Shown one piece after another: positions 17,109 to 42,287 of a stretch of DNA of 64,000 nt; position 1 is the first letter of the stretch, and the number at the start of each line of letters is the position of its first letter. Source of the stretch: a candidate division WWE3 bacterium RAAC2_WWE3_1 (GTDB taxonomy: Bacteria > Patescibacteriota > WWE3 > UBA101185 > UBA10185); contig CP006914.1 of assembly GCA_000503835.1 (NCBI GenBank), positions 157,218 through 221,217 of the forward strand. Direction: 5' to 3'. The notes under the pieces are model-generated. The model saw only the letters and a list, made by a program, of their open reading frames with translations, was not told the origin of the DNA and made no database searches. A program made the translations under genes and the position numbers.

Positions 17109-17123
17109 TGGTATCATCTTCTT

Positions 17124-17663
17124 ATGAAAGTTTATACAAAAGAAGGCGATTCCGGAACCTCTGCTTTGTTTGGTTCAACAAAACGCATGCCTAAATCAAG
17201 TACCGTGTTTGAGATCCTGGGTCTTGCCGACGAAGTAAATGCTACGCTGGGGTGTGCTTTGGCGTTTCTCAAAAGACCTTCTGAAACAGCACTTTTGACG
17301 TCGATTCAGGAAGATATATTTCTCATAGGTGCCTATATTGCCGGGCTGAAGTTCTCCTCCGCGGATAAGGCTGTATGGACGAAAAGAGTAACTGATCTGG
17401 AGGACAGAATAGATGCATACTCGGCAAAACTACCCATCCTGAAGGTTTTTATACTTCCGGGGGGCTCTGAGGCTTCTTCCCACATACATCTGGCGCGGGT
17501 GAAAGTAAGGGCATTAGAAAGAGATTTGGTGTCCTATAGCAGAAAAAAGTCGCTAAAATTCCTTTTGCCCTATATAAACCGACTTTCTGACCTATTGTTC
17601 GTTTTGGCACGTTATGTGAATATGGAACTTGGTAAGAAAGAAGAAATTTGGAAGAAAAAATAA
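17124..17663 (+). CDS. ATP:cob(I)alamin adenosyltransferase, PduO/MMAB type
   Basis: N-terminal KVYTKEGDSGTSALFGSTKRMPK...ILGLADEVNATLG matches the PduO-type signature (xIYTxxGDxGxT..G.R..K ... G..DE.N). Confidence 0.8.
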   Translation: MKVYTKEGDSGTSALFGSTKRMPKSSTVFEILGLADEVNATLGCALAFLKRPSETALLTSIQEDIFLIGAYIAGLKFSSADKAVWTKRVTDLEDRIDAYSAKLPILKVFILPGGSEASSHIHLARVKVRALERDLVSYSRKKSLKFLLPYINRLSDLLFVLARYVNMELGKKEEIWKKK

Positions 17664-17800
17664 TGAATAAGACCTACATATTTTTACTTATCATGCTAGT
17701 ACTTGTAATGACGGCTTTGGTCGGACTTTTAGTTTATAGGGCGCACGAAAACGATATATTTTTTTCGGGACAAGAATCTTTAGAAGTGATCAAAATCTGA
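17663..17800 (+). CDS. Possible 45-aa hydrophobic leader/mini-membrane peptide upstream of ileS
   Basis: ATG at 17663 overlaps the stop of the upstream gene. Encodes MNKTYIFLLIMLVLVMTALVGLLVYRAHEN..., below the ORF-track size cutoff. Confidence 0.2.
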   Translation: MNKTYIFLLIMLVLVMTALVGLLVYRAHENDIFFSGQESLEVIKI

Positions 17801-17817
17801 TAAAATTCTTTTGCTTT

Positions 17818-20691
17818 ATGGATAAAAAAGAGAACCCAAGTCAAAACATATCAATACCCCGGATGGAAGAAGATATCCTCCAGTACTGGCTGCAGAATAA
17901 GATTTTCGAAAAATCGGTAGAAAAGAATCCCAAAGAAAATCTATATGTGTTTTACGACGGACCTCCTTTCATCTCCGGTCTTCCGCATTATGGCCATCTC
18001 CTTGGTTCTATAGCCAAAGACATTGTACCCAGATACTGGACGATGAAAGGCAAAAGAGTAGAAAGGGTATGGGGTTGGGACGCTCACGGGTTGACTGTAG
18101 AAAATAAAGTACAGAAAAAGTTCGGGATTAAGAACAGACGTGACATCGAAAAATTCGGTTTGGAAAGATTTACGCAGGAATGTTATAACTACACACGCGA
18201 AACTTCGGCAGAGTGGGAGTGGTACGTAAATAAAATAGGAAGATGGGTTGATATCAAAAACGCATACCGAACGACAGATAAAAGTTATATGGAGACCGTA
18301 ATGTGGACCTTCAAGCAACTTTATGATGGAGGTTTGGTTTACGAAGGTATCCGCACATCTTTATACTGCACTAAATGCGGGACTCCGGTTTCGAATTTTG
18401 AAATAGCAATGGACAACTCGTACAAAGATGTCGAGGATCCCGCCATTACGGTTAAGTTTAAAATTATTACCGAAGGTCAGTTTAAGGACGCGTTCGCCCT
18501 GGCATGGACTACAACTCCCTGGACTATTCCCTCAAACCGCGCTTTGGTCGTAGATAAAGATGCGGATTACACACTTGTAGAAAGCAGCGGTACCCGCTAC
18601 ATTACTGCGGAAGCGCGCAATGACGGCGTTTTTTCAGACCGGGAATTTAAAGTAGTTAAAAAGATAAAAGGAAGTGAATTGATAGGTTTAAAATATGAAC
18701 CTCCGTTCAGATTTTATTCATCAAAAGAGGGTGAGTTCGAAATATATCATTATGACGGAATGGTGAGTATGGAAGAAGGTACCGGTATTGTTCACAGCGC
18801 GCCCGGTTTCGGAGAGATCGATTCGGAGATGGGGAAACACTTCGGTCTCACACTCATGCTGACAATAGACGATGAAGGTAAGTTTTTACCCGGAACTGAA
18901 AAAGAAAATCCTTACACGGGAGTTTTTTATAAGGACGCCGACGAGCCGCTAATACAAGACATGCTCACTGCCGGTCTTTTGTTTAAGAATGAAAAAATAG
19001 TCCACAGATTTCCTTACCACGACAGATGCGACACGCTTTTGATACAAAGAGCCCAACAGAGCTGGTTTATCGATGTGAGTTCATTAAAACCCAGAATGGC
19101 CGAGCTTAATGAGAAAATAAATTGGGTTCCTGAGCATCTGAAACACGGCAGATTCGGACAAAATATTCAGCAGCAGCCCGATTGGTGCATTTCCAGAAAC
19201 AGATATTGGGCGACACCCATGCCGGTCTGGGAAGCCGCAGACGGGGATAGAATTGTTGTTTCCTCGGTAAAAGAAATAGAAGAGCTGTCGGGTCAAAAAG
19301 TAGAAGACTTGCACCGTCCCTATATCGACAAGATAGTAATTAAAAAGAACGGCAAGGAATACAAACGCCGGCTGGAGGTTCTTGATTCCTGGCTCGAAGC
19401 CGGGTCAATGCCTTGGGCGCAAATACATTACCCCTTTGAGAACAAAGAAAAATTCGAGACCAACTATCCGGGTGACTATATCGTTGAGTACATCGCCCAG
19501 GTCAGAGCGTGGTTCAACGTAATGCACATACTTGCTACGGCGGTGTTCGACTCCAATTCTTTTAAAAATGTTATATCTACAGGCGTAATGGCCGGATCCG
19601 ACGGAAGAAAAATGAGCAAGACGTTTAACAATTACGCAGACCCCCGTCAGGTACTTCAGGATTATGGAGGAGACGCGCTCAGACTCTACTTAATGGGATC
19701 ACCTCTTATGGTTGGGGATAACGCGAACTTCGAAGAGTCGGAGTTAAGGACAAAACTTCGTAATGTTCTGAACCCTCTCTGGAATTCTTTGAAATACTTT
19801 CAGATGTACGCAGAGGTTTTTAAGTGGAACAAGTCGGAAATTACGAGGCCGGAGCATATTTTAGATATCTGGATAACTGCAAGACTGCACGAAGTAATCA
19901 GGACGGTCTCTACAGGTATTGAAGAGTATCGTGTTCCTGTTGCAGTAAGAGCTGTGGAAGAATTTATTGACGACCTTTCCAGATGGTACGTGAGAAGGTC
20001 GCGCGATAGGATATCCGCCGGAGATAAAAGTGCATTAAGTACTTTATATAAGGTTCTGCTTGGGTTTTCTAAGGCATCCGCTCCCGTTATTCCTTTTATG
20101 TCCGAAAATATTTATCAGATGCTTCGGGTATTTTCGGCAGGAGACACCGAAGAATCGGTTCACCTCGAAAATTTTCCCGGATACGACAGCGATTTTATAT
20201 TGTCAAACCAACGTTTACTGGAGGATATGAAAAGGGTCAGGGAGCTGGTTTCATACGGACTTTCGATAAGAAGCGATAGGAAAATTTCAGTACGCCAGCC
20301 GTTGGCCTCCGCCGTAGTTTCCGGAATAGAAACGCTGCCGCATGAACTTTCCGCACTTGTGCAGGACGAGCTTAACGTTAAGGATATTCAGTACGTTACA
20401 GAAGTGCCGGCGTCTTACGCTCCGGTGTCCTTCAACAATATTAATATAGGACTGGATATAAATATTACGGATGAGTTGAAATACGAAGGCTTGTCCAGAG
20501 ATTTTATAAGAAAAATACAGGAGATGAGAAAAGAAGCCGGGTTAAAGGTAGGCGAAGTCATTGAAATTACTTATCCTTCCGATTCGGACACACTGAAAGT
20601 TATCGAATTATACGGTGCCGAGATATCCAAAAAGATTCAAGCTTCAAATCTTATAGCCGGAGCGGATTTTACGGTCCGAAAAGTTAGCTAA
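17818..20691 (+). CDS. ileS: Isoleucyl-tRNA synthetase (type 2, archaeal/eukaryotic-like)
   Basis: Class I HIGH-type motif PPFISGLPHYGHLL, KMSKT at RKMSKTF, editing (CP1) domain. 957 aa. Confidence 0.9.
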   Translation: MDKKENPSQNISIPRMEEDILQYWLQNKIFEKSVEKNPKENLYVFYDGPPFISGLPHYGHLLGSIAKDIVPRYWTMKGKRVERVWGWDAHGLTVENKVQKKFGIKNRRDIEKFGLERFTQECYNYTRETSAEWEWYVNKIGRWVDIKNAYRTTDKSYMETVMWTFKQLYDGGLVYEGIRTSLYCTKCGTPVSNFEIAMDNSYKDVEDPAITVKFKIITEGQFKDAFALAWTTTPWTIPSNRALVVDKDADYTLVESSGTRYITAEARNDGVFSDREFKVVKKIKGSELIGLKYEPPFRFYSSKEGEFEIYHYDGMVSMEEGTGIVHSAPGFGEIDSEMGKHFGLTLMLTIDDEGKFLPGTEKENPYTGVFYKDADEPLIQDMLTAGLLFKNEKIVHRFPYHDRCDTLLIQRAQQSWFIDVSSLKPRMAELNEKINWVPEHLKHGRFGQNIQQQPDWCISRNRYWATPMPVWEAADGDRIVVSSVKEIEELSGQKVEDLHRPYIDKIVIKKNGKEYKRRLEVLDSWLEAGSMPWAQIHYPFENKEKFETNYPGDYIVEYIAQVRAWFNVMHILATAVFDSNSFKNVISTGVMAGSDGRKMSKTFNNYADPRQVLQDYGGDALRLYLMGSPLMVGDNANFEESELRTKLRNVLNPLWNSLKYFQMYAEVFKWNKSEITRPEHILDIWITARLHEVIRTVSTGIEEYRVPVAVRAVEEFIDDLSRWYVRRSRDRISAGDKSALSTLYKVLLGFSKASAPVIPFMSENIYQMLRVFSAGDTEESVHLENFPGYDSDFILSNQRLLEDMKRVRELVSYGLSIRSDRKISVRQPLASAVVSGIETLPHELSALVQDELNVKDIQYVTEVPASYAPVSFNNINIGLDINITDELKYEGLSRDFIRKIQEMRKEAGLKVGEVIEITYPSDSDTLKVIELYGAEISKKIQASNLIAGADFTVRKVS

Positions 20692-32107: not shown

Positions 32108-32189
32108 TTTGATACCTCCTAAATTTGGATTAGAGGCTAATTGTACCCTATAGTACATATTTTGTCCAGTCTTAGGGATGTTTAAATGG

Positions 32190-32262
32190 AGCCGATAACA
32201 GGAGTCGAACCTGTGACCTTTCCCTTACGAAGGGACTGCTCTACCAACTGAGCTATACCGGC
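32190..32262 (-). tRNA. tRNA-Thr (anticodon CGU)
   Basis: Reverse-complement folds as GCCGGTA-TA-GCTC-AGTTGGTA-GAGC-A-GTCCC-TTCGTAA-GGGAA-AGGTC-ACAGG-TTCGACT-CCTGT-TATCGGC-T. Very close to canonical bacterial tRNA-Thr; one G·A mismatch at position 27-43. CCA is encoded at 32187-32189. Confidence 0.85.
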
Positions 32263-32370: not shown

Positions 32371-32408
32371 TTGACTTGCGTCAGGTCGGATACTACAATA
32401 CCTAGTAA
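32371..32408 (+). promoter_or_regulatory. Sigma70-like promoter (TTGACT-17-TACAAT) overlapped by inverted repeat TACTA-N7-TAGTA; near-leaderless start of blaI-like gene
   Basis: TTGACT at 32371-32376, a 17-nt spacer, and TACAAT at 32394-32399. Inverted repeat TACTA at 32391-32395 / TAGTA at 32403-32407. The ATG at 32410 has no Shine-Dalgarno. Confidence 0.5.
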
Positions 32409-32409
32409 C

Positions 32410-32808
32410 ATGAGCAATAAAAGGGTTACAGGCAAAGTATTGGGTAATCTGGAATCCGAGGTAATGGAAATTATCTGGAGTCTAAAAGGCGAGGCTTCGG
32501 TCAAATGTGTGGCCGAAATTTTAAGCAAAAAACGCAAAATCGCATATACAACCGTGATGACCGTCATGGCGAGACTAGCGAGTAAAGGTGTTCTGGTACG
32601 ACACATGAACGGGCCGAGCTATCTGTATAAACCCAAAGTTACAAAAGACCGATTTATAGCAAAAGCGGCCCACAGTATTTTTTCTTCGGCCGTTTCCAAC
32701 CTGGGTGATGAAGTGTTAGCTCATTTTATAAAAGAAATCCAAAAGATTAGTCCGAAGAAACGACAGGAGCTTTTGAAGATGCTGAACGAAGACCGAAAGG
32801 GTATTTGA
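32410..32808 (+). CDS. BlaI/MecI/CopY-family winged-helix transcriptional repressor
   Basis: EVMEIIWSLKGEASVKCVAEIL...IAYTTVMTVMARLASKGVL matches the penicillinase-repressor family N-terminal domain. No CopY-type C-terminal Cys motif. Confidence 0.8.
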   Translation: MSNKRVTGKVLGNLESEVMEIIWSLKGEASVKCVAEILSKKRKIAYTTVMTVMARLASKGVLVRHMNGPSYLYKPKVTKDRFIAKAAHSIFSSAVSNLGDEVLAHFIKEIQKISPKKRQELLKMLNEDRKGI

Positions 32809-32823
32809 CGCTTTTCTCGAATT

Positions 32824-33834
32824 ATGAAAAGAATTAATTTAAGTTTTTATGTATTACTTTTATCTTCGTTAAGTGTCGGTCTGGTTCTGACCGCCGTTTT
32901 ATATAAAGTTTCACCTTTCTTTACTTCAAGAACCCTTTTCCTTTGTCAAAAATTCGTTTCGGGCATGATGACGGAAATTCCCCGTCCGGTGTCTAACTTA
33001 CTCATTCTGGCTGTAGGGATAGTTGTAGGGACAGGGCTTTTATCTTTCCTAGTGCAACTTATCAAAACCCATATTTTCTTAAAAAAACTACTCGTAAAAA
33101 AGATTCCGGTATCCCGGGTGTTAGCAGGAGTCCTGGAAAAATTAAAACTTACAAAGAAAGTAGTTCTGGTTAAGGACGACAACCTGTTTTCTTTTTGTTG
33201 CGGTATCTTTTCCCCCTTTATAGTTGTGAGCACCGGTCTTGTGAGATCCCTGACAGTCAAAGAATTAGAGGCAGTTCTGTTACATGAACAATCTCATCTG
33301 ATAAGCAGGGATCCTGGTAAGGTCCTTCTGGGAAAAACATTTTCCTCTATGTTCTTCTTTCTGCCTATTTTTAGGGAGCTTCATAAAGATACGGAGGCAG
33401 TCAATGAACTGTTAGCGGATCAATGGGCGATCAGACACCAGGAAAATTCAACTTTTTTGCGCAGTGCCCTTAAAAAAATATTAGCGGCACCCGAAGTAAA
33501 TTTGGCAGCTGTTTCCAACGCATCCGGTCCGGACTATTTCGAGATAAGAATCCACCGTCTAGTGGACCCCGGCACAAAACACAAACTCAGGCCTTCACCG
33601 GTAAGCTTAGTGACGACCTTTTTGTTTATTTTGGTGGGGTGGTTCTCATTGCAAACTCCGGTCAATGCTTTTCATTCGGATACTATGAACAACAACGCTT
33701 ATCATTCGGATACTATTTTTTTATGTTCACACGATTGGGCCTGTTCCGAGGAGTGCAGGATTAACATTGAACAGCCCGTGAAATATATACCCGCCGACAT
33801 GCTCGTGCCCGAAAAGAAATGCGGAAACGATTAG
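32824..33834 (+). CDS. BlaR1/MecR1-like M56 zinc metalloprotease signal transducer lacking the penicillin-binding sensor domain, with Cys-rich C-terminal tail
   Basis: About 4 TM helices and an HExxH (LLHEQSHLISRD) zincin motif positioned as in the M56 family. Only 336 aa. C-terminus CSHDWACSEECRIN...KKCGND. Confidence 0.72.
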   Translation: MKRINLSFYVLLLSSLSVGLVLTAVLYKVSPFFTSRTLFLCQKFVSGMMTEIPRPVSNLLILAVGIVVGTGLLSFLVQLIKTHIFLKKLLVKKIPVSRVLAGVLEKLKLTKKVVLVKDDNLFSFCCGIFSPFIVVSTGLVRSLTVKELEAVLLHEQSHLISRDPGKVLLGKTFSSMFFFLPIFRELHKDTEAVNELLADQWAIRHQENSTFLRSALKKILAAPEVNLAAVSNASGPDYFEIRIHRLVDPGTKHKLRPSPVSLVTTFLFILVGWFSLQTPVNAFHSDTMNNNAYHSDTIFLCSHDWACSEECRINIEQPVKYIPADMLVPEKKCGND

Positions 33835-33938
33835 AATGTGTGCCGTTTTTCTATCCGGTTTCCTCTTATTTTCTTATTGACAAAACTCAGGTAGTTCTAC
33901 TACACTGAGTAGTAGTTCATTTAGAAAGGAGGTATCTT

Positions 33939-34202
33939 ATGACGGAAACTCAGAAATCAGAAACAAATACAACTCCCATTCAGGAAAGCACAGTAATCGT
34001 ACGTGTCCCCAAACCAAATCTACAGGTTGTGGTGCTGGGACTCATAGCTCTTATCACTCTTTTTCAAACTTTTCAACTGATGCGTATTAGTGCTAAAGCC
34101 AGTACGGTATCGGTAAAATCCGCTCCCGCCACTACCACTAATAGCGGAACCGGCACGGGAACCGATTCGGATGTACCGGAGTCAATGGTTGGAGGCTGCT
34201 AA
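33939..34202 (+). CDS. Small membrane protein (87 aa) ending in GGC
   Basis: Strong Shine-Dalgarno AAGGAGG at 33926-33932, one TM helix, Thr/Gly-rich tail. Confidence 0.45.
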   Translation: MTETQKSETNTTPIQESTVIVRVPKPNLQVVVLGLIALITLFQTFQLMRISAKASTVSVKSAPATTTNSGTGTGTDSDVPESMVGGC

Positions 34203-34226
34203 GTCGTTACACAGGATTGAAATACT

Positions 34227-35459
34227 ATGAACTGGAAAAGTGTTTTATCAGATGTTGGTTCCGGGGTGAGGAGTAAGAAAGAAGACTTAAATATCACGTG
34301 GCCAAAGATAATTTTGAGCATCGGATTTTTGGCCGCTGTTATCGGAGCCCTTGTTTCAACCGAAACCCTTGCAACCATCAATAAAAATATTGCCAAAGCG
34401 GAAGAAGAAGCCCGTCCTGCCGAGGTGGCGATAGTTAAGATAATTACCCCCGATTGCCGTTATTGTTTTAATGTCGACTTGGCAGTGAATGATTTTAAAA
34501 AGCAAAATGTTAAAGTAGTGGAAGAAAAAACTTTAATTTACGGTTCCCCGGAGGCCGAAGCCTCGATCAGGCAGTTTTCAATTCAAAGAATTCCTACTTA
34601 TATTGTTTCAGGAGAAATAACCAAAAGTAATATTGAGAGTTTTGTTAAAAGTACCGGAGAAGTTAGAGGAGCCGCCGAAGACACATCGACAAGCAATGCT
34701 TTTGTTTTTACCAAGGTCACACCTGTTTATATCGATACCGAAAGTAACCAGGAAATGGGCAAGGTAACGGCAACTATATTGAGCGACCCGTCGTGTACTC
34801 AGTGTTTGGACCCTAAATTGACGATAGAGGGTTTTAAAAAGTCCGGAATAAAAATAGTCGACGAAAAAGAGATAGTTTGGAACTCTTCCGAGGGTAGGAA
34901 AATTATTGATCAGTTCAAAATTACTAAATTACCCACCTTTATTCTTTCCCCTGAGATAGATATCTACGATAACGTTAGGTCAAACTGGGCTAATATCGGA
35001 ACAATAGAGCAGGATAAAACTTATGTGGCGAGAAATTTGTTCTTTCCATACAGAGACATAGAGAAGGGCGGAATATTGGGATTGGTCGATTTGGTGTATC
35101 TTGTCGATTCAAGCTGCGGCGATTGTTACAAGGTCGACACCGTCCAGAAACCCATTCTTGAACAGGGATATGGCGTTCGTTTTCGTTCTGAAAGGACAGT
35201 TGACGTTTTATCCGAAGAGGGACAACGTTTGACGAATAGATACAAAATTACTAAACTTCCCACAATACTGTTATCACCCGATGTAGCTCAGTACACAAAT
35301 CTGCAAAAAATCTGGAACGGTGTCGGAACGATTGAACAGGACGGTTGGTATGTATTCAGGGAGATGCAGCAATTGGGCGGAGCTGTTTACAAAGATTTGG
35401 CAACCAATCAGACGGTCGGAAAGACGCCTGCAGTATCCGGCACGGGGGGAGCACAATAA
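34227..35459 (+). CDS. Membrane-anchored protein with three tandem thioredoxin-fold (DsbA/Trx-like) repeats, each with a CxxC motif
   Basis: N-terminal TM, then three ~110-aa repeats carrying CRYC, CTQC and CGDC. Each is followed by a conserved ...KITKLPT(F/I)(I/L)LSP(E/D)... and ...GTIEQD..YV segment. Confidence 0.7.
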   Translation: MNWKSVLSDVGSGVRSKKEDLNITWPKIILSIGFLAAVIGALVSTETLATINKNIAKAEEEARPAEVAIVKIITPDCRYCFNVDLAVNDFKKQNVKVVEEKTLIYGSPEAEASIRQFSIQRIPTYIVSGEITKSNIESFVKSTGEVRGAAEDTSTSNAFVFTKVTPVYIDTESNQEMGKVTATILSDPSCTQCLDPKLTIEGFKKSGIKIVDEKEIVWNSSEGRKIIDQFKITKLPTFILSPEIDIYDNVRSNWANIGTIEQDKTYVARNLFFPYRDIEKGGILGLVDLVYLVDSSCGDCYKVDTVQKPILEQGYGVRFRSERTVDVLSEEGQRLTNRYKITKLPTILLSPDVAQYTNLQKIWNGVGTIEQDGWYVFREMQQLGGAVYKDLATNQTVGKTPAVSGTGGAQ

Positions 35460-35464
35460 TAATT

Positions 35465-36745
35465 ATGAACTCATTATTAGCACCATTAAAAATTATTTTC
35501 AGAGAGTCTTTTTACAGGCACGTAGCTTTCTTCACGATCCTGGCATTCGGTTACCTTTCCTATTGGCTATTTTACAAGAGCACAACTTTCGAAACCTACC
35601 TGTTAAATATGAAGACCGGGGATTTTGGAGAGTTCAGTGTTGCATACGGCGTTACTTACATATCTACAACAATTTTGACAATTATTTTATCCGGGATAAG
35701 CGTGGCTACAGTTTTTTGGCTTTACCGTCATTCCAAGTTGAGTCAGATCAGGAATATCGGCGCAAATCTTGGGGGGCTAATCGCAGCCTTTTTCGGTACA
35801 GGCTGTCCCGTATGCGGAGCGTTCTTATTGTCAGCGATCGGTGTAACAGGAGGACTGGCCGTATTTCCCTTACAAGGACTGGAACTTAAATTTTTAAGTT
35901 TGGGTCTTATCGCAGGGTCATTATTTTACGGTGTTAAGAAGGTACACGAAATGATTCACTGCGACGATTGTAATGATATCTCACACGACCGCAAAAGCCG
36001 CACAAGTGAAAAAAAAGGCCGCAGGTTTTTTATTTTGCCGCTAAGAGACACTCTTATATACACTCTGGCAGGACTTTTCCTTGTCAACCAATTTTTAATT
36101 GCGCAGGTTTCTGCGGCTATGGGTATGGTTGCTAATAAGGGATTAGTAGCCCAGCTTTTGGGCATACAAACCAGGTCTACCTACACCATAATTGCTCCCA
36201 AAATAAATCCCGACAAAAAGACCACTTCGCTTGCCGAATGGCCGACAATCACTGAAGTTCCGGCCAATCCGAATAGTGGAAACGCACTCGCCGATGCCAA
36301 GGTAGTAATGATTGCGACCGGTCAGCCTTTTTATGCCCCAGAAAATGTCTCGTTTGATGACCCGATTAATGCCCAAAAGAAATGGGGGGCATTTGAAAAA
36401 TCCATAAAACTGTCAACGGAACAGGAAGCAAGATACCAAAGACTTATCGGTACTATGATGACCTGCAGCTACTGTTGCGGCGGCCCTAAAAATGTAACTA
36501 TGAATAAAAACTGCGGATGTGCTCACGCAAAAGCCGTGAGAGGATTTTACCGCTACATGATCCAGAATTACGGCGACAAATACTCTGATGAACAATTGGT
36601 AGGCGAGTCACATCGATGGTACGCCTTGTGGTACCCGAAAGGAATGCTTGAAGATTATTTGCTGGCTACCGGTAACGAAAGTGCATTACCTCACACGTCA
36701 CACGGAGGTGCAGGTTCAGACGGAAGGCACGGAATCGCGAAATGA
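35465..36745 (+). CDS. Cys-rich polytopic membrane protein (TM CPVC, loop CDDC, C-terminal CSYCCGG/CGC cluster)
   Basis: Start reassigned to ATG at 35465 (MNSLLAPL...), immediately after the stop of the upstream gene. About 4 TM helices; GTGCPVCGAFLLSAIGVTGG lies in a TM segment. The alternative overlapping frames at 35320/35345 are rejected. Confidence 0.6.
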   Translation: MNSLLAPLKIIFRESFYRHVAFFTILAFGYLSYWLFYKSTTFETYLLNMKTGDFGEFSVAYGVTYISTTILTIILSGISVATVFWLYRHSKLSQIRNIGANLGGLIAAFFGTGCPVCGAFLLSAIGVTGGLAVFPLQGLELKFLSLGLIAGSLFYGVKKVHEMIHCDDCNDISHDRKSRTSEKKGRRFFILPLRDTLIYTLAGLFLVNQFLIAQVSAAMGMVANKGLVAQLLGIQTRSTYTIIAPKINPDKKTTSLAEWPTITEVPANPNSGNALADAKVVMIATGQPFYAPENVSFDDPINAQKKWGAFEKSIKLSTEQEARYQRLIGTMMTCSYCCGGPKNVTMNKNCGCAHAKAVRGFYRYMIQNYGDKYSDEQLVGESHRWYALWYPKGMLEDYLLATGNESALPHTSHGGAGSDGRHGIAK

Positions 36746-37089
36746 TCAATTTCATCGATTACCTCGATTTTTTCATATTTATAGGCGGAACTGTAATACT
36801 CGTAGGTATACTTTATTTTTTCTTCCGTGATTCCTTAAAGGATATTTTTATTTCGGAGGATGACATAGCGGAGCCTGAAATTTCAAAACGTTCGCCCGTT
36901 GTGGAAATATTATTTTCCGAAGACCGTAAAAATAATCCGTCATCGGCTTTGATTAAAAAGATAGGGGCGGTTTTTATAGCTATTATTATCGGCGGTTTTG
37001 TGCTGAACCAGTTCCTGATGTGGAAAATGACCTCTTCCGCTATTTCGGAAAGGCCTTTCGATATAAATATTAGTATTTCTAAAAAATGA
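36742..37089 (+). CDS. Small membrane protein
   Basis: 115 aa, two hydrophobic helices, translationally coupled to the upstream gene (4-nt overlap). Confidence 0.4.
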   Translation: MINFIDYLDFFIFIGGTVILVGILYFFFRDSLKDIFISEDDIAEPEISKRSPVVEILFSEDRKNNPSSALIKKIGAVFIAIIIGGFVLNQFLMWKMTSSAISERPFDINISISKK

Positions 37090-37096
37090 GAAAAAT

Positions 37097-37648
37097 ATGA
37101 CAACAGAAACCAAGGTTTTAATAAGTGTCGCGATAGTTACAGTCGCTCTCCTCGGAGGGGGTGTGTGGTTTATGAGTAATCAGACTGCCGGAGAACAGGC
37201 TAAACTAAGTCGACCGTTAATGGGCGAAACCACCCCGGATCAGGGAGCCGCGCACATACCGGAAGGTACAACGGCGGAATACAGCACGAATCCTCCGACA
37301 ACCGGTCCGCACTACGGAAAGTCCCAGTCCGCTGGTATTTACGATATGCCGATACCGGATGGAAACCTTTTACATAGCATGGAACATGGGGCGGTCATAA
37401 TTTGGTATAAAGCAGCCAATGGGTCAGAGGACGGAGGCTTATCCGGTCAGGATATTGAGCGGCTAAAACAGATTTTCAGCTCGGTTGCCGTTAATAAGAA
37501 AATCATGGTGCCGAGGGAAAACCTTGATGTTCCGGTAGCTCTAACCTCCTGGGGTAGATTACTTAAGCTTCAGACAATCGATGAAATCCAAATCAAAGCT
37601 TTTATGGAGACGAATGAAGACAGGGGTCTTGAAAAAGCGCCGCTCTAG
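37097..37648 (+). CDS. Membrane-anchored DUF3105-like protein
   Basis: N-terminal TM. PTTGPHY and HSMEHGAVIIWY match the conserved Gly-Pro-His and His-x-x-E-H-G segments of DUF3105. Confidence 0.6.
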   Translation: MTTETKVLISVAIVTVALLGGGVWFMSNQTAGEQAKLSRPLMGETTPDQGAAHIPEGTTAEYSTNPPTTGPHYGKSQSAGIYDMPIPDGNLLHSMEHGAVIIWYKAANGSEDGGLSGQDIERLKQIFSSVAVNKKIMVPRENLDVPVALTSWGRLLKLQTIDEIQIKAFMETNEDRGLEKAPL

Positions 37649-37790
37649 AATTTGGACCTTCTTTAATTCCGTTTCCATGAAAGAGCTGCAGCACTTTTAT
37701 GTGGGCAGTAAAGCTCCACAACATAAGGAATTTAGAAGTTTCAAACTTGTACTACACATTGTAGTATCTTTTGTGCTATAGTTAACTGAA

Positions 37791-38246
37791 ATGGGTGAAT
37801 TAATTGTAAGTAAAGACATTTTGAAGAAGGCGTCATTAAAAGGAGCCATTTCTTTTACCGTTCTCTTGTCGGTGTACTTCCTGATTCTAACGCTAGTTTC
37901 GGGATGGAACTTTGCCTGGGTGCAGTTTACGCAGTTTTGGTATTACATCCTGACTCTCGCTTTAGGATTTGGTATACAATTTACCCTTTACAGCTACCTT
38001 AGAGATGTTGTGAAACAAGCTTCTACAGGACAAGTTTTGGCTACAACAGGGGCAACGTCGACGGCAGCCATGATATCCTGCTGTGCTCACTACTTAACCA
38101 ACATCCTGCCCGTTTTGGGGGTAACAGGAATTATTACTTTTATTGGCCAGTACCAGGTTCAATTTTTCTGGGCCGGATTATTTTTTAATCTTCTTGGGAT
38201 ACTTTACATCGGAAATAAAGTTTTGAAAGTTTCGGGACGAATATGA
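37791..38246 (+). CDS. Polytopic membrane protein with MerT-like vicinal-Cys helix (MISCCAHYLTNILPVLG)
   Basis: 151 aa with about 4 TM helices. The CC motif sits within a helix followed by Pro/Gly, as in MerT TM1. Confidence 0.5.
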   Translation: MGELIVSKDILKKASLKGAISFTVLLSVYFLILTLVSGWNFAWVQFTQFWYYILTLALGFGIQFTLYSYLRDVVKQASTGQVLATTGATSTAAMISCCAHYLTNILPVLGVTGIITFIGQYQVQFFWAGLFFNLLGILYIGNKVLKVSGRI

Positions 38247-38722
38247 AGAAAACTACAGTTATTTTTATCGTTATATTAATAGTTATTTTGGTTATCGTGC
38301 TTAAAAATAGTCTTACCGTAAATATAGGCCCTAAAGATATAGGTACGCCTGCCGGCACAAACGGTTCTTTCCAAAACACAAATAGCAACAACGGCTTGGA
38401 AACAAAAGAAAGTAACGACGGTCCGGTATCCGTCACCGTTACGCCTCTTGATGTAGGGGATAACGCATCCCTATGGAGTTTTGACATCGCGCTAAACACT
38501 CATTCTGAGGAGATTGGAGAAGATCTGACTGTTGTGTCCGTGCTTATAGATGACGGAGGAAAGACATACAGACCTATATCGTGGGAAGGTTCAGCTCCGG
38601 GAGGCCACCATCGTAGCGGTGTTCTAAAATTTAGTGCTATATCACCCAGACCTAATACTCTGGAGTTAAAAATAAACAATGTCGGCGGAATTTCCGAAAG
38701 GAGCTTTAAGTGGGAGCTTTAA
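38243..38722 (+). CDS. Membrane-anchored beta-rich protein with His-rich patch (APGGHHRSG)
   Basis: N-terminal TM, then a predicted beta-sandwich-like extracytoplasmic domain. No family assigned. Confidence 0.45.
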   Translation: MKKTTVIFIVILIVILVIVLKNSLTVNIGPKDIGTPAGTNGSFQNTNSNNGLETKESNDGPVSVTVTPLDVGDNASLWSFDIALNTHSEEIGEDLTVVSVLIDDGGKTYRPISWEGSAPGGHHRSGVLKFSAISPRPNTLELKINNVGGISERSFKWEL

Positions 38723-38729
38723 AAAGTTT

Positions 38730-39323
38730 ATGAGTGAAAAGAAAGTCATTGTAATAGTTTCCGTAATCACGATAGCTTTGCTCATAGTGCCTACCTTTCT
38801 AATTGGCGGCAATAAAGGTGACAACTCTTCTAAAACTTCGACGGAGGCCGCATCTCTTAACGAGTTAGTTGGAAGATCTGCGGCTGATTTTACCCTGGAA
38901 AGTTATAATGGCGACAAAACAACTCTGAGTAGTCTTAAAGGTAAAAACGTAATCCTCTTTTTTAATGAAGGTCTCATGTGCTATCCGGCTTGTTGGGATC
39001 AGATTGCCGCTTTCGGGAAGGACACCGAATTTGCAGATAAAAATACGGTGGTATTAACTATTGTGACCGATTCAAAAAAAGATTGGGAAGGTGCAGTTGA
39101 AAAAATGCCGGAGCTTACCGGGGCAATTGTCTTACTCGATACTAACCGAAAGGTATCCGTTTCGTATAAAATGCTATCGCTTCCTTCCTCGATGCATAGA
39201 GGCCAGACTCCGGGGCATACTTATGTAGTTATTGATGCCGAGGGTATTGTTCGCTATGTTAAAGATGATGTTCAAATGGCTGTCAGAAATCAGGAGTTAC
39301 TGGCGGAGATAGGAAAACTATAA
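38730..39323 (+). CDS. Membrane-anchored thioredoxin-fold protein, Sco1/SenC- or redoxin-like (CxxxC)
   Basis: Start moved to ATG at 38730, after the upstream stop. TM anchor. GKNVILFFNEGLMCYPACW has C-x3-C in the Sco1-type position, with a conserved His about 85 aa downstream (SSMHRGQTPGH). Confidence 0.65.
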   Translation: MSEKKVIVIVSVITIALLIVPTFLIGGNKGDNSSKTSTEAASLNELVGRSAADFTLESYNGDKTTLSSLKGKNVILFFNEGLMCYPACWDQIAAFGKDTEFADKNTVVLTIVTDSKKDWEGAVEKMPELTGAIVLLDTNRKVSVSYKMLSLPSSMHRGQTPGHTYVVIDAEGIVRYVKDDVQMAVRNQELLAEIGKL

Positions 39324-39326
39324 TCT

Positions 39327-40193
39327 ATGGAACTTTTAATTAGTGCATCATTTATAGCATCGTTCTTTGCGGGAATCGCAGCACTTTTTGCCCCCTGCTG
39401 TATCACTGTTCTCCTGCCGACTTATTTCGCTTCCATTTTTAAGCAGAAATCTACCGTGTTTTTGATGACCTTTGTTTATTTTCTCGGTATCCTGTCGATC
39501 TTTCTTCCTATCGGTCTCGGAGTTTCATTTCTCACCCAGCTTTTCAGCCAATACCATGACACCATTTTCCTCATCGGCGGAATATTTTTGATATTTCTGG
39601 GGATGACTTTACTTCTCGGACAACAAATGTCTTTACCTTTCAGCGTCCACCCGAAATTAAAAGGGCAGGATTTTGTGTCGGTTTATGTCTTAGGTGTATT
39701 TTCAGCCGTCGCAACCACCTGCTGCGCCCCCGTACTAGCAGGAGTCCTGACTTTGTCGGCGCTTCCCGGATCGGTGTTCTTAGGCGGAGTTTATACTCTT
39801 GCTTATGTACTGGGCATGGTCCTGCCTCTTTTCATTATCGCCTTTACTTTAGACAAGGTCGATTTTACTCAGAAGTTCGTTGCCTTTAGAAAGAGAATCT
39901 CTTACTCTGTGCTCGGTCAAAAGGTAAGTCTGACTTTTGCTAATCTATTCTCCGGGCTAATGTTCCTGGTTCTGGGCATTGTTATAATTTACCTTGCCAA
40001 GACAAGCCAGCTGACATCCCACTCCTCATACCAGGTTTCGTTGAATATATACCTGACAAAATTTATTAACGGGATAGGACGGTTTACGCAGGTTATTCCC
40101 GAGGCAGGATGGGCTGCCATTTTCATCCTTGTCACACTGTTCGTTACTTTTACTGCCATCAGACAATTTATAAATTTAAAGAAAAGGAAGTGA
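39327..40193 (+). CDS. CcdA/DsbD_2-like transmembrane protein with two MerT-like vicinal-Cys helices
   Basis: 8 predicted TM helices. FAPCCITVLLP and ATTCCAPVLAGVL lie in separate helices. Confidence 0.6.
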   Translation: MELLISASFIASFFAGIAALFAPCCITVLLPTYFASIFKQKSTVFLMTFVYFLGILSIFLPIGLGVSFLTQLFSQYHDTIFLIGGIFLIFLGMTLLLGQQMSLPFSVHPKLKGQDFVSVYVLGVFSAVATTCCAPVLAGVLTLSALPGSVFLGGVYTLAYVLGMVLPLFIIAFTLDKVDFTQKFVAFRKRISYSVLGQKVSLTFANLFSGLMFLVLGIVIIYLAKTSQLTSHSSYQVSLNIYLTKFINGIGRFTQVIPEAGWAAIFILVTLFVTFTAIRQFINLKKRK

Positions 40194-40199
40194 TTTTGA

Positions 40200-40865
40200 A
40201 TGAATAAAAACGGACTTATTGCAACTTTGGGCACCGGGCTGATTTTGGGTTTAGTTATACTTATAAGCAATTTTAATATTCGGATAGATGTAAATAGTAA
40301 CGATGGCCGGGAGCCTATCGGCAGACAGATGACACCGCAGGCACAGGATGACTCTATGGCGGGTCATCACGGAGGTGGCACACCGGCCGACGCCACTCTT
40401 TTTAACGACTTGGTCGGTAAAACGGCGCCTGACTTTACGTTGGAAAGCTACGATGGAAAAAAGATAACTCTTAGTGAGCTGAAGGGTCAGAACGTCATTC
40501 TTTTCTTTAATGAGGGCCTCATGTGCTACCCGGCCTGCTGGAACCAGATTTCTGCTTTCGGCAAGGATACTGCATTGCAAAGTAAGGCTGTGGTACTAAA
40601 CATCACGGTCGACCCCAAAAATAACTGGAAACAGGCCGTAAATAAAATGCCTGAACTTGCCGGTGCCACGGTACTTTTTGACAGCAGTAGGGAAGTCTCT
40701 AAGAAATACGGAGTTTTAACTCTGCCGTCATCAATGCACAAAGGTCAATTTCCGGGGCACAGCTATGTAATAATAGACAAAGAAGGAACAGTTAAATTTA
40801 TCAGGGACGATGTTTCTATGGCGGTAAGAAATGATGAGCTATCTGCGGAACTGGACAAGTTGTAA
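40200..40865 (+). CDS. Sco1/SenC- or redoxin-like thioredoxin-fold protein, paralog of 38730-39323, with His/Met-rich N-terminal segment
   Basis: About 60% identical to the upstream paralog over the folded domain, with the same LMCYPACW and SSMHKGQFPGH motifs. N-terminal segment DSMAGHHGGG. Confidence 0.65.
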   Translation: MNKNGLIATLGTGLILGLVILISNFNIRIDVNSNDGREPIGRQMTPQAQDDSMAGHHGGGTPADATLFNDLVGKTAPDFTLESYDGKKITLSELKGQNVILFFNEGLMCYPACWNQISAFGKDTALQSKAVVLNITVDPKNNWKQAVNKMPELAGATVLFDSSREVSKKYGVLTLPSSMHKGQFPGHSYVIIDKEGTVKFIRDDVSMAVRNDELSAELDKL

Positions 40866-40884
40866 TTTATAAGGAGGTGAAACT

Positions 40885-41094
40885 ATGGGTATTTTTAATA
40901 ACGTACAAAGTATCTTTAAAAAGACCGGTAGTGCAGTAAACTACGTTAAAGACCCGATCTGCGGTATGAAGGTTAATCTGGATAAGGCAGAATTCAAAAG
41001 TACATATGAAGGCAAAGAATATGGTTTCTGTTCTGCAAGCTGTAAGGTTGAGTTTGACAGTAATCCCGACCAGTATGCGCTTGCAGGCCGTTAA
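40885..41094 (+). CDS. YHS/TRASH-domain metal-binding protein
   Basis: DPICGMKV...GKEYGFCSASCKVEFDSNPDQY fits the YHS domain pattern. Shine-Dalgarno AGGAGG at 40872-40877. Confidence 0.8.
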   Translation: MGIFNNVQSIFKKTGSAVNYVKDPICGMKVNLDKAEFKSTYEGKEYGFCSASCKVEFDSNPDQYALAGR

Positions 41095-41137: not shown

Positions 41138-41166
41138 TTGACAGTAGTTGTGCAGACTGATATATT
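41138..41166 (+). promoter_or_regulatory. Sigma70-like promoter TTGACA-17-TATATT upstream of arsR-like gene
   Basis: TTGACA at 41138-41143, a 17-nt spacer, and TATATT at 41161-41166. Short direct repeat TATTTC-GA-TATTTC downstream (41174-41187). Confidence 0.5.
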
Positions 41167-41195
41167 ATTGAAGTATTTCGATATTTCAATAAACT

Positions 41196-41468
41196 ATGTC
41201 AAAGAATACCTTAAAAGTTTTTAAAGCATTGGCAAACAGAACCAGGATAAAAATACTCAAAAAGCTGGTAGATGACGAGGAACTGTCCTGTCAGGAACTG
41301 ATGAAACATTTTCCATTATCACAGCCCACTCTTTCACACCACTTCGGCAAATTAATAGAAGGCGGAATTTTACGTGTAAAGAAGGACGGTGTCAGCCACT
41401 ATTATAGTGTCAATAAAACCTATCTTGCAGGCCTCGGCGTGGATATCGAAAAGATAACAAAGTTGTAA
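41196..41468 (+). CDS. ArsR/SmtB-family metalloregulatory transcriptional repressor
   Basis: LANRTRIKILKKL...ELSCQEL...LSQPTLSHHFGKLIEGGIL matches the ArsR HTH signature. Confidence 0.85.
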   Translation: MSKNTLKVFKALANRTRIKILKKLVDDEELSCQELMKHFPLSQPTLSHHFGKLIEGGILRVKKDGVSHYYSVNKTYLAGLGVDIEKITKL

Positions 41469-41488
41469 TTTAAATTGGAGGTAAAAAT

Positions 41489-42109
41489 ATGGAAAGTAAT
41501 AATGAATTTGGAAATTTAAGCGCGAACGACAGGCTAGAAAGAACAGTTGCGGCGTTGCAGCAGAGCGGATTTACGGTGGAGACAGTAGAGACAGGTAGTG
41601 AAGCGAAAGAAAAAGTTTTGAGTATTCTTCCCGAAAAAGCAGAGGTTTTTACCATGGCATCTCAAACACTGGAACAAGTAGGTTTATCGGATGCTATCAA
41701 CACTTCAGGCAAATATGATTCTGTCCGAAATAAGCTCAACGCGATGGACAGGAATACGGAAGGTCGGGAGATGGCCAGGCTGGGAGCTGCCCCGGACTGG
41801 GTAGTTTCTTCGGTGCACGCAGTTACGGAAGACGGTCACCTATTAATTGCTTCTAATACAGGTAGCCAACTTTCAGCAGAAGCTTACTCCGGCGGTAAAG
41901 TGATTTTTGTGGCAGGTACCCAAAAAATTGTTAAGGATAACGCCGAAGGTTTAAGGAGAATCTACGAATATGTTCTCCCGCTGGAAGATGTACGGGCTCA
42001 AAAAGCTTATGGCATGCATAGCAACGTATCAAAGATTTTGATTATAAATAAGGAAATAGTGCCGGAAAGAATAATTGTTATTTTGGTTAAGGAGAAGCTG
42101 GGGTTTTAA
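41489..42109 (+). CDS. LUD-domain (LutC/YkgG-like) protein
   Basis: About 200 aa with a VTEDGHLLIASNTGSQL segment resembling the LUD/DUF162 core. Shine-Dalgarno GGAGG at 41477-41481. Confidence 0.5.
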   Translation: MESNNEFGNLSANDRLERTVAALQQSGFTVETVETGSEAKEKVLSILPEKAEVFTMASQTLEQVGLSDAINTSGKYDSVRNKLNAMDRNTEGREMARLGAAPDWVVSSVHAVTEDGHLLIASNTGSQLSAEAYSGGKVIFVAGTQKIVKDNAEGLRRIYEYVLPLEDVRAQKAYGMHSNVSKILIINKEIVPERIIVILVKEKLGF

Positions 42110-42215
42110 CGGAACGCATTGTTTTTGTTTGCGATGTTTTTCGCTCCGCCATTCTCATCCCTTACACCCTATAAATTTGCCCACCAACCCTACGGGCTGT
42201 TGGTCAAATTTCTGG

Positions 42216-42287
42216 AGCGGGTGACGGGATTCGAACCCGCGACCTTTTCCTTGGGAAGGAAACGCCATACCACTAGGCCACACCCGC
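42216..42287 (-). tRNA. tRNA-Gly (anticodon CCC)
   Basis: Reverse-complement GCGGGTG-TG-GCCT-AGTGGTA-TGGC-G-TTTCC-TTCCCAA-GGAAA-AGGTC-GCGGG-TTCGAAT-CCCGT-CACCCGC-T, close to E. coli tRNA-Gly(CCC). CCA encoded at 42213-42215. Confidence 0.85.

Follow-up and report, generated by a model that had tools for sequence, protein, structure and literature searches.

A BlaI/BlaR1-type repressor-protease pair with conserved external cysteines and a predicted thiol-redox regulon in a WWE3 bacterium

We analysed a stretch of 64,000 nt (here called the window) from the uncultured groundwater bacterium RAAC2_WWE3_1 (candidate division WWE3), contig CP006914.1 (GCA_000503835.1). Coordinates are positions in the window unless another locus is named. 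The window contains a gene for a repressor of the BlaI/MecI/CopY family followed by a gene for a membrane protease of the BlaR1 type that lacks the penicillin-binding domain, and two operons lie directly downstream. In staphylococci, gene pairs of this kind govern resistance to penicillin. The pair is probably a BlaI/BlaR1-type regulated-proteolysis switch of the non-beta-lactam class, activated by the oxidation of external cysteines or by their binding of a thiophilic metal. The regulatory architecture is strongly supported by its conservation in related loci. As further parts of the model we infer what the signal is, that the repressor binds and is cleaved, and that transcription is leaderless. 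The features are listed in Table 1.

To follow the conservation of the system, 30 related loci were fetched, and 16 of these (L001-L016) are clear orthologs. They come from WWE3, Daviesbacteria, Roizmanbacteria and Levybacteria, and from bins without a name. In the window the repressor and protease genes are separated by 15 nt on the plus strand, and in all 16 orthologous loci the two genes adjoin or overlap. The synteny extends further, as the repressor, the protease and both operons remain linked across WWE3, Daviesbacteria, Roizmanbacteria and Levybacteria. The bins of L003, L004, L005, L011, L014 and L016 carry the title "uncultured Gammaproteobacteria". In gene content and in their closest relatives these loci resemble the candidate phyla radiation (CPR), so the labels look wrong.

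The protease matches Peptidase_M56 (PF05569) with 46.7 bits, above the cut-off of 31. It also passes the threshold of the M48 family (PF01435, 37.8 bits, cut-off 20.3), but this match covers only about 75 residues (107-180) around the HExxH motif, and the HtpX models of NCBIfam give 16-24 bits against cut-offs of 245-422. The peptidase families M56 and M48 are related to each other, and cross-matches between their models occur throughout the protease family. When a profile of 27 homologs was compared with the PDB, the cryo-EM chains of S. aureus BlaR1 were matched with an E-value of 3.5e-12, the family profile aligning to BlaR1 residues 106-347, while an HtpX fragment was matched at 4.2e-5. 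An AlphaFold model was built on 89 homologs, and its core has a predicted local distance difference test score (pLDDT) above 90. In a Foldseek search of the PDB, the best six matches are all chains of BlaR1 (top structures 8EXP, 8EXS, 8EXQ, 8EXT and 8EXR), placed above Ste24, ZMPSTE24 and HtpX. As BlaR1 is preferred in both sequence and structure searches, the protease is BlaR1-like rather than HtpX-like. The first-pass annotation had set its M56 assignment against an M48/HtpX identity; the latter was rejected, as BlaR1 fits better by Pfam, by PDB profile and by fold. The residues His154, Glu155, His158, Glu195 and Asp199 are invariant in the 89-homolog alignment, and they align with His201, Glu202, His205, Glu242 and Asp246 of BlaR1, which are zinc-ligand and catalytic residues (PMC9834060).

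The same annotation described the protein as a 336-aa protease without a beta-lactam sensor, and this is correct. The transpeptidase domain is absent; neither PF00905 nor any other C-terminal domain was matched in the protease, which ends 60 residues past the last helix, and with the NCBIfam model blaR1_generic it reaches 32 bits, where the cut-off is 400. We found more than 200 relatives, and those with a named source all belong to CPR bacteria (Daviesbacteria, WWE3, Patescibacteria). The 120 relatives among the matches listed are all at most 375 aa long, and the complete ones have about 280-375 aa. The loss of the sensor is, however, not the oddity it was first taken for. According to a survey of about 15,000 M56 proteins, only about 6% carry the transpeptidase (beta-lactam sensor) domain and about 94% do not; the commonest architecture is M56 with a short tail in which no domain is recognised, and a BlaI-like gene is linked to 96% of the proteins (Kurtz et al. 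2026, PMC13492132).

By hydropathy, the protease has helices at residues 8-26, 59-77 and 258-276. Residues 78-257 are rich in lysine and arginine and hold the protease domain, while the tail (277-336) is acidic, with 4 K/R and 9 D/E. The last helix aligns with the last helix of BlaR1, which leads to the extracellular sensor domain. Because of this alignment and of the charge bias, the tail is expected outside the cell, in the place of the penicillin sensor. The predicted topology is therefore BlaR1-like, with a cytoplasmic protease and a last helix that leads outside, and the only other external segment in this prediction is the loop 27-58 between the first two transmembrane helices. Just past the last helix stands the nearly invariant sequence QTPVxA|F (33655-33675, residues 278-284), which is similar to a cleavage site for type I signal peptidase, with the bar marking the bond. 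In BlaR1, SpsB cuts the equivalent linker between Gly331 and Gln332.

The C-terminus of the protease reads ...FLCSHDWACSEECRIN...KKCGND. Cys301, Cys307 and Cys311, which form a C-x5-C-x3-C motif, are invariant in the 89-sequence alignment, and the longer pattern Y-F-[LVM]-C-S-x-[DE]-[NQ]-x-C-x2-[EQ]-C-[HQN] is found in 94 of the 120 homologs among the matches listed. Together with Cys41 of the first external loop, there are thus four conserved cysteines on the predicted outer face, and these are the most conserved extracytoplasmic residues of the protease. We searched 1.84 billion representative proteins with a profile of the tail and found the motif solely in M56 proteins or their fragments. 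Judged by this search, C-x5-C-x3-C is unique to this M56 subfamily. A Cys-rich tail had been noticed before and is indeed present and conserved in this form, but the final Cys333 (in KKCGND) is kept in the nearer relatives only.

The gene product at 32410-32808, earlier called a BlaI-family repressor, matches Penicillinase_R (PF03965) with 96.6 bits (cut-off 22.6, E 1.5e-27) over profile positions 1-114 of 115, which confirms that description. An alignment of the N-terminus (MNKKRVTGKVLG...) backs the start codon at 32410, and one public annotation gives an identical 132-aa product. The closest solved structure is M. tuberculosis BlaI (2G9W, E 1.5e-11), and S. aureus BlaI and MecI come next. 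The bond His105-Phe106 is the alignment counterpart of the scissile bond Asn101-Phe102 of BlaI/MecI and is the predicted scissile bond of the repressor. At this position the Phe is invariant in 19 compared related repressors, and P1 is mostly His, with Tyr or Ser in three; M. tuberculosis BlaI likewise has His-Phe.

The sequence TACTA-N7-TAGTA occurs exactly three times in the window, at 32391, 33898 and 37750, and all three copies fit the longer palindrome TACTACA-N3-TGTAGTA. With one mismatch allowed, the shorter form is found five times against 1.56 expected. The copy at 32391-32407 had already been compared with BlaI operators, and the repeat is exact there, although it is better written in the longer form. 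The positions upstream of 33939 and 34227 had been named as places to look for further copies; we find a site upstream of 33939 (and another one upstream of 37791), but none upstream of 34227. In 323 kb of sequence, i.e. the window and the 16 loci, the 14-base motif TACTACA-N3-TGTAGTA with at most two mismatches gives 48 sites, compared with 0-5 in shuffled sequences (mean about 1.9).

These sites belong to three classes. Class 1 lies at the repressor's own promoter, where the left arm contains the -10 hexamer and the operator ends 1-4 nt before the ATG. Class 2 lies over a TTGACA-18-TACACT promoter between the protease gene and the next gene. Class 3 belongs to a promoter with an extended -10 (TGcTAnAcT), in which it sits at the -35 position, and the ATG is 7-10 nt past the -10. 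Of the 16 orthologous loci, 12 have a motif of the O1 type directly 5' of the repressor gene. The layout of P2 and O2 is kept in all 16 and also in L021, with a strong Shine-Dalgarno sequence (GAAAGGAGG) downstream, and O3, at the -35 position, is conserved in ten. The half-site equals that of the known BlaI/MecI operator, which has the core TACANNTGTA with TACA/TGTA half-sites (PMC1935004).

The promoter TTGACT-17-TACAAT named by the first-pass annotation is present at 32371-32399, and its geometry is found in most orthologous loci. As a class, promoter-like matches are not enriched in the region (23 observed, 22.4 expected), so the P1 match alone proves little and the argument for operators and promoters rests on the conservation of their position across species. 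By this measure, TACTACA-N3-TGTAGTA is a real operator at three conserved promoter positions. Between the end of the -10 and the ATG there are 10 nt at P1 (32399 and 32410) and 8 nt at P3 (37782 and 37791). In both cases a Shine-Dalgarno sequence is absent, while good ones are found at the operon-internal genes and at the first gene past P2. By this promoter prediction, the mRNAs from P1 and P3 are likely to be leaderless or near-leaderless. The leaderless geometry earlier noted at the repressor start is conserved in the orthologous loci. The O2 region (33897-33915) was also picked out as a terminator-like hairpin, a 7-bp stem followed by TTCATTT, and might thus reduce the transcription that runs on from the repressor-protease operon into operon 2.

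Downstream of the pair there appears to be a two-operon regulon of membrane-anchored Cys-motif proteins under a BlaI-type operator. Operon 2 encodes, in this order, an 87-aa protein, a triple thioredoxin-like protein, a 426-aa Cys-rich protein, a 115-aa membrane protein and a DUF3105 protein. Operon 3 encodes a 151-aa protein, a 159-aa protein, a redoxin, CcdA, a second redoxin and a YHS protein. Both orders are kept in the orthologs. The spacing is 24, 5, -4 and 7 nt within operon 2 and between -44 and 24 nt inside the blocks overall, and the gaps between the blocks, of 104 and 142 nt, contain operators. Nearly all products of the regulon are membrane proteins, either polytopic or with one N-terminal helix, the YHS protein alone having no predicted transmembrane segment, and nearly all bear Cys or His motifs. 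The 151-aa membrane protein has an invariant SCCAHY in a helix, and the 159-aa protein is an anchored beta-sandwich protein with an invariant GGHH. No match to a described family was found for the 87-aa protein or for the 151-aa CC protein. For the 426-aa protein there is no match in Pfam or NCBIfam, and it has more than 400 relatives which, where the source is named, are hypothetical proteins of uncultured or CPR bacteria. By its position, the 87-aa gene is reminiscent of the main target of C. difficile CenIR, which is a small exported protein.

A DsbD_TM protein is present together with anchored thioredoxin-fold CxxC partners, the combination by which a DsbD/CcdA-type system is recognised in sequence. 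Gene sets of this kind for a reductive or thiol-protecting envelope are known from the Ccd, Dsb and Scs systems, and by analogy with these the regulon looks like an envelope reductive or thiol-protecting system. The paralogous redoxins on either side of the CcdA gene carry LMCYPACW (CYPAC, CxxxC) instead of the usual CxxC.

The YHS protein of operon 3 is part of a copper context that is also seen in relatives. In L002 (Daviesbacteria) the operator-controlled 151-aa gene is directly preceded by a gene for a repressor of the CsoR family (PF02583), and the extra genes between the operons (14949-20381) include a second CcdA-thioredoxin pair, a YHS protein and a His-rich CC membrane protein. The same region also has an OmpR-type two-component system and an ICMT-like methyltransferase. 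In L023, an Actinomycetota bin, a distant repressor-protease pair is found a few kb from a perfect operator (TACTACAcgcTGTAGTA, 14875-14891), which is upstream of an operon with DUF2933, redoxin, CcdA and CopC/CopD. Next to this operon is a copper-type P-type ATPase that has HMA, cupredoxin and YHS domains. Both the operator and the copper/thiol theme thus reach beyond the CPR bacteria. A second nearby site in L023 reads TACGACACTGTGTCGTA. Extra operator copies are located at 8830 in L001, 8802 in L002, 6749 in L004, 16614 in L013, and 6369 and 11644 in L016; they precede genes that the window lacks, and some relatives thus have a larger regulon.

Table 1. Features of the repressor-protease locus and its predicted regulon, with positions in the window.
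Feature	Position	Strand	Basis or remark
Promoter P1 (predicted), TTGACT-17-TACAAT, of the repressor-protease operon	32371..32399	+	Consensus scan, 10/12
Operator O1 (TACTACAATACCTAGTA)	32391..32407	.	Overlaps the -10 hexamer; ATG 2 nt past its end
BlaI/MecI/CopY-family winged-helix repressor, 132 aa	32410..32808	+	Pfam PF03965
M56 (BlaR1-type) membrane zinc protease, 336 aa, without penicillin-binding domain	32824..33834	+	Pfam PF05569
Cys41 codon, first extracytoplasmic loop (F-x-C-Q-K-F)	32944..32946	+	Kept in at least 90% of homologs
HEQSH codons (His154, Glu155, His158), catalytic zinc motif	33283..33297	+	Invariant in 89 homologs
Glu195 codon, third zinc ligand	33406-33408	+	Invariant in 89 homologs
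Lineage-specific direct repeat, 15-nt in-frame duplication, +5 residues (HSDTI)	33663..33716	+	Alignment to two orthologous loci
Tail motif C301-x5-C307-x3-C311, predicted extracytoplasmic, at the position of the BlaR1 sensor domain	33724..33756	+	Homolog alignment, topology prediction
Promoter P2 (predicted), TTGACA-18-TACACT, with operator O2 (TACTACACTGAGTAGTA, 33898-33914) over the -10 hexamer	33877..33914	+	Position conserved
Operon 2, five genes (87-aa protein to DUF3105 protein)	33939..37648	+	Spacing, synteny, Pfam
87-aa single-pass membrane protein	33939-34202	+	C-terminus DVPxSMVGGC invariant across 16 loci
Membrane-anchored protein with three thioredoxin-like CxxC modules	34227-35459	+	Thioredoxin matches below threshold
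426-aa Cys-rich membrane protein (CPVC, CDDC, CSYCC, CGC)	35465-36745	+	Motif listing
Operator O3, perfect 7+3+7 palindrome TACTACA-CAT-TGTAGTA (37750-37766), then extended -10 TGcTATAGT	37750..37782	+	Motif search
Operon 3, six genes (151-aa protein to YHS protein)	37791..41094	+	Pfam, synteny, alignments, spacing
AhpC/TSA-like redoxin, membrane-anchored	38679-39323	+	AhpC/TSA and Redoxin Pfam matches
CcdA/DsbD-type membrane protein (DsbD_TM PF02683, E 2.1e-10), two CC pairs	39327-40193	+	Pfam
Second AhpC/TSA-like redoxin, membrane-anchored	40200-40865	+	AhpC/TSA and Redoxin Pfam matches

According to our model, a dimer of the repressor would occupy the three TACTACA-N3-TGTAGTA operators over core promoter elements and block RNA polymerase at its own promoter and at those of operons 2 and 3. 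The protease would be located in the membrane with the zinc site in the cytoplasm, and its external parts would be the Cys41 loop and the 60-residue acidic C-x5-C-x3-C tail. Oxidation of the cysteines, or a thiophilic metal for which copper is the leading candidate, would activate the protease. In analogy to BlaR1, the activated protease would cut the repressor at His105-Phe106 and both operons would be induced. The induced thioredoxin-like proteins, redoxins, CcdA conduit and Cys/His-rich proteins would then restore a reduced or metal-free envelope and sensor, forming a feedback loop. Thiol-reactive envelope stress from copper or oxidants would be the most likely signal. The first-pass annotation had likewise suggested metal or thiol stress via the Cys tail, which would agree with the content of the regulon and with the predicted external position of the tail.

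How the external cysteines could act is suggested by BlaR1, which cuts BlaI directly and in which acylation expels the external loop EL1 from its docking place in the sensor domain (PMC9834060). Because EL1 docks the sensor in BlaR1, and here the loop has Cys41 and the tail three cysteines, a tether between loop and tail, formed or released through disulfide chemistry or through a thiophilic metal ion that both share, would be the simplest analogue. Shedding of the tail at QTPVxA|F by signal peptidase may participate as well, since SpsB cuts BlaR1 in the same linker. A more specific version of the model is put forward tentatively. In it, Cys41 and C-x5-C-x3-C would form a four-cysteine external switch that reads copper or oxidant damage to envelope thiols and is reset by the induced reductases; this would be the first nameable non-beta-lactam input of a BlaR protein, and a minimal transmembrane redox or metal sensor that uses leaderless transcripts, in ultra-small CPR bacteria whose regulators are few.

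Several observations weigh against a cysteine-sensing switch of this kind. Several natural homologs have cleanly lost C-x5-C-x3-C while the protease is retained, and one motif-less locus, L003, keeps the operators before operons 2 and 3 but has no recognisable operator at the repressor promoter. The tail is predicted to be disordered (AlphaFold pLDDT <50), so a metal site or a disulfide geometry is not visible. The operator spacing is N3, one base more than in the published TACA-N2-TGTA, and a copper exporter is not present in the regulon of the window.

Homologs without the Cys motif would also be expected if the switch and its regulon were as described but the cysteines merely structural, e.g. 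in a disulfide-stapled stalk or a zinc knuckle, and the true signal another envelope cue, such as a protein partner (for instance the 87-aa protein), a cell-wall fragment or a membrane perturbation. The nearest studied analogue, CenIR, has a short unstructured tail, and its top-regulated gene encodes a small exported protein just downstream (PMC13492132), an arrangement that resembles the 87-aa gene here. We nevertheless regard structural cysteines as rather unlikely, as the three tail cysteines and the loop cysteine are the most conserved extracytoplasmic residues, and as it would be strange for an input unrelated to thiols to control a regulon that consists almost wholly of thiol-redox and Cys/His-motif proteins. 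More improbable is that the protease is a constitutive quality-control or turnover enzyme of the HtpX/M48 type, with the repressor inactivated directly by a cytoplasmic ligand or metal as in CopY. The protease does pass the Pfam threshold of M48 and matches HtpX models weakly, and the top NCBIfam model for the repressor is CopY/TcrY (TIGR02698). The M48 match is, however, restricted to about 75 residues, and in Pfam, in the PDB profile search and in fold the protease is closer to BlaR1. Two further points against this reading are that the gene pair adjoins or overlaps in every orthologous locus and that a BlaI-like gene is linked to about 96% of M56 proteins (PMC13492132). The CopY/TcrY score is 64.4 bits against a cut-off of 121.95, and the CopY-type CxCx4CxC motif is absent from the repressor, which has one Cys in the whole protein and none C-terminally. 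As there is a single Cys and no CxCx4CxC site, the repressor is not a direct copper sensor of the CopY kind, and this candidate was rejected.

The historical function of the family would suggest that a beta-lactam or cell-wall damage is still sensed, via a separate penicillin-binding partner, and such indirect sensing exists elsewhere, e.g. in PbpP with sigma-P. Here we consider it very improbable. The transpeptidase domain is absent from the protease, no beta-lactamase or penicillin-binding protein gene is located in or beside the regulon of the window, and the content of the regulon indicates another role.

We compared the proposed cysteine-responsive switch with known systems. With BlaI/BlaR1 and MecI/MecR1 of S. 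aureus it shares a winged-helix repressor gene followed by the gene of a membrane M56 gluzincin, the HExxH...E zinc site, an aligned last transmembrane helix, a predicted repressor cleavage site at the aligned position with Phe at P1', TACA/TGTA palindromic operators over core promoter elements, and, as predicted here, autoregulation. It differs in that a 60-residue Cys-containing tail replaces the 250-residue penicillin-binding sensor and that two transmembrane helices, rather than three, precede the protease domain. Further, P1 is His and the half-site spacing N3, where the S. aureus systems have Asn and N2, and the regulon is one of thiol redox and metal instead of beta-lactamase or PBP2a.

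Studied sensor-less pairs include C. difficile CenIR, mycobacterial BlaIR and a pair of P. aeruginosa, and neither for these nor for the other M56 proteins without the sensor has an activating signal been identified (PMC13492132). CenIR also has a BlaR-like protease without transpeptidase domain and with a short tail predicted to be unstructured (PMC13492132), a tightly controlled gene for a small exported or membrane protein immediately 3', and an envelope-related regulon. However, the tails are non-homologous, no Cys motif is reported for the CenR tail, and the CenIR regulon consists of peptidoglycan enzymes, not of thiol-redox genes; for the pair described here, the tail motif and the regulon suggest a signal. 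M. tuberculosis BlaI (Rv1846c) is the nearest repressor structure (2G9W) and shares His-Phe at the predicted cleavage position, and its partner BlaR (Rv1845c) also lacks the beta-lactam-binding domain (PMC13492132). Its regulon is different, being linked in the literature to ATP synthase, cell division and beta-lactamase.

CopY/TcrY of Firmicutes are similar in the repressor family and in the link to metal homeostasis. The "cop box" of CopY is a TACA-type operator whose logic is shared with the operators here. CopY, however, senses cytoplasmic copper(I) via its C-terminal CxCx4CxC and needs no protease, whereas the candidate site here is outside the cell and on the protease. The Scs and CcdA/DsbD-TlpA pathways have the same combination of a DsbD-type membrane electron conduit and anchored thioredoxin-fold proteins, and in Scs systems this set protects the envelope from copper-driven thiol damage. 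The Scs systems are under two-component or other regulators instead of a BlaI/BlaR pair, and the 426-aa Cys-rich, the 151-aa CC and the 87-aa GGC-ending proteins are outside described families. In the literature we found no publication joining BlaR1 and the candidate phyla radiation, and none of the papers listed in a search on BlaR1, copper and CopY concerns a copper- or thiol-sensing BlaR.

The linker of the tail contains a direct repeat, which the first-pass annotation gave as 16 bp (33672-33686 and 33702-33716). It is real and longer, with two copies of 24 nt at 92% identity (33663-33686 and 33693-33716), but the resulting AFHSDT/AYHSDT peptides are a private duplication without a conserved role. 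Aligned to two orthologous loci (L001, L002), the window has an exact in-frame insertion of 15 nt (TCATTCGGATACTAT) copied from 30 nt upstream. This duplication is confined to this lineage and one 97%-identical relative; it is missing in L001, L002 and nearly all homologs, while another homolog has an independent insertion of five residues at the identical spot. From these alignments the repeat is a recent slippage event in a tolerant linker, outside the conserved design.

The cluster is flanked by two tRNA genes on the minus strand, tRNA-Thr(CGU) at 32187-32262 and tRNA-Gly(CCC) at 42213-42287, and an Rfam search of the region found only tRNAs. The G+C content is flat across the boundaries of the cluster, so signs of a recent acquisition are absent; the genes had been called a downstream island, but the compositional mark of an acquired island is not found. 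Outside the regulon, at 41138-42109, is the best promoter match of the region, TTGACA-17-TATATT with an upstream TG (11/12). The genes that follow it encode a regulator of the ArsR family (41196-41468) and a protein with a LUD domain (41489-42109), and there is no operator near these genes (41196-42109).

The loss of the sensor domain is itself already known, and what is novel in this subfamily is the defined and conserved cysteine module together with the thiol/metal regulon, from which the input signal becomes predictable. With a tiny invariant external Cys motif, a defined operator and a compact conserved regulon that consists nearly entirely of envelope thiol-redox and metal-motif proteins, the subfamily is a readable case. 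The question of what non-beta-lactam BlaR proteins sense becomes directly testable, as the parts are short enough for synthesis and for reconstitution in a model host. In addition, the locus offers a rare look at how CPR bacteria regulate transcription, with a mapped operator, three promoters and probably leaderless mRNAs, and it flags several uncharacterised families of Cys/His-motif membrane proteins as likely envelope redox or copper-handling factors.

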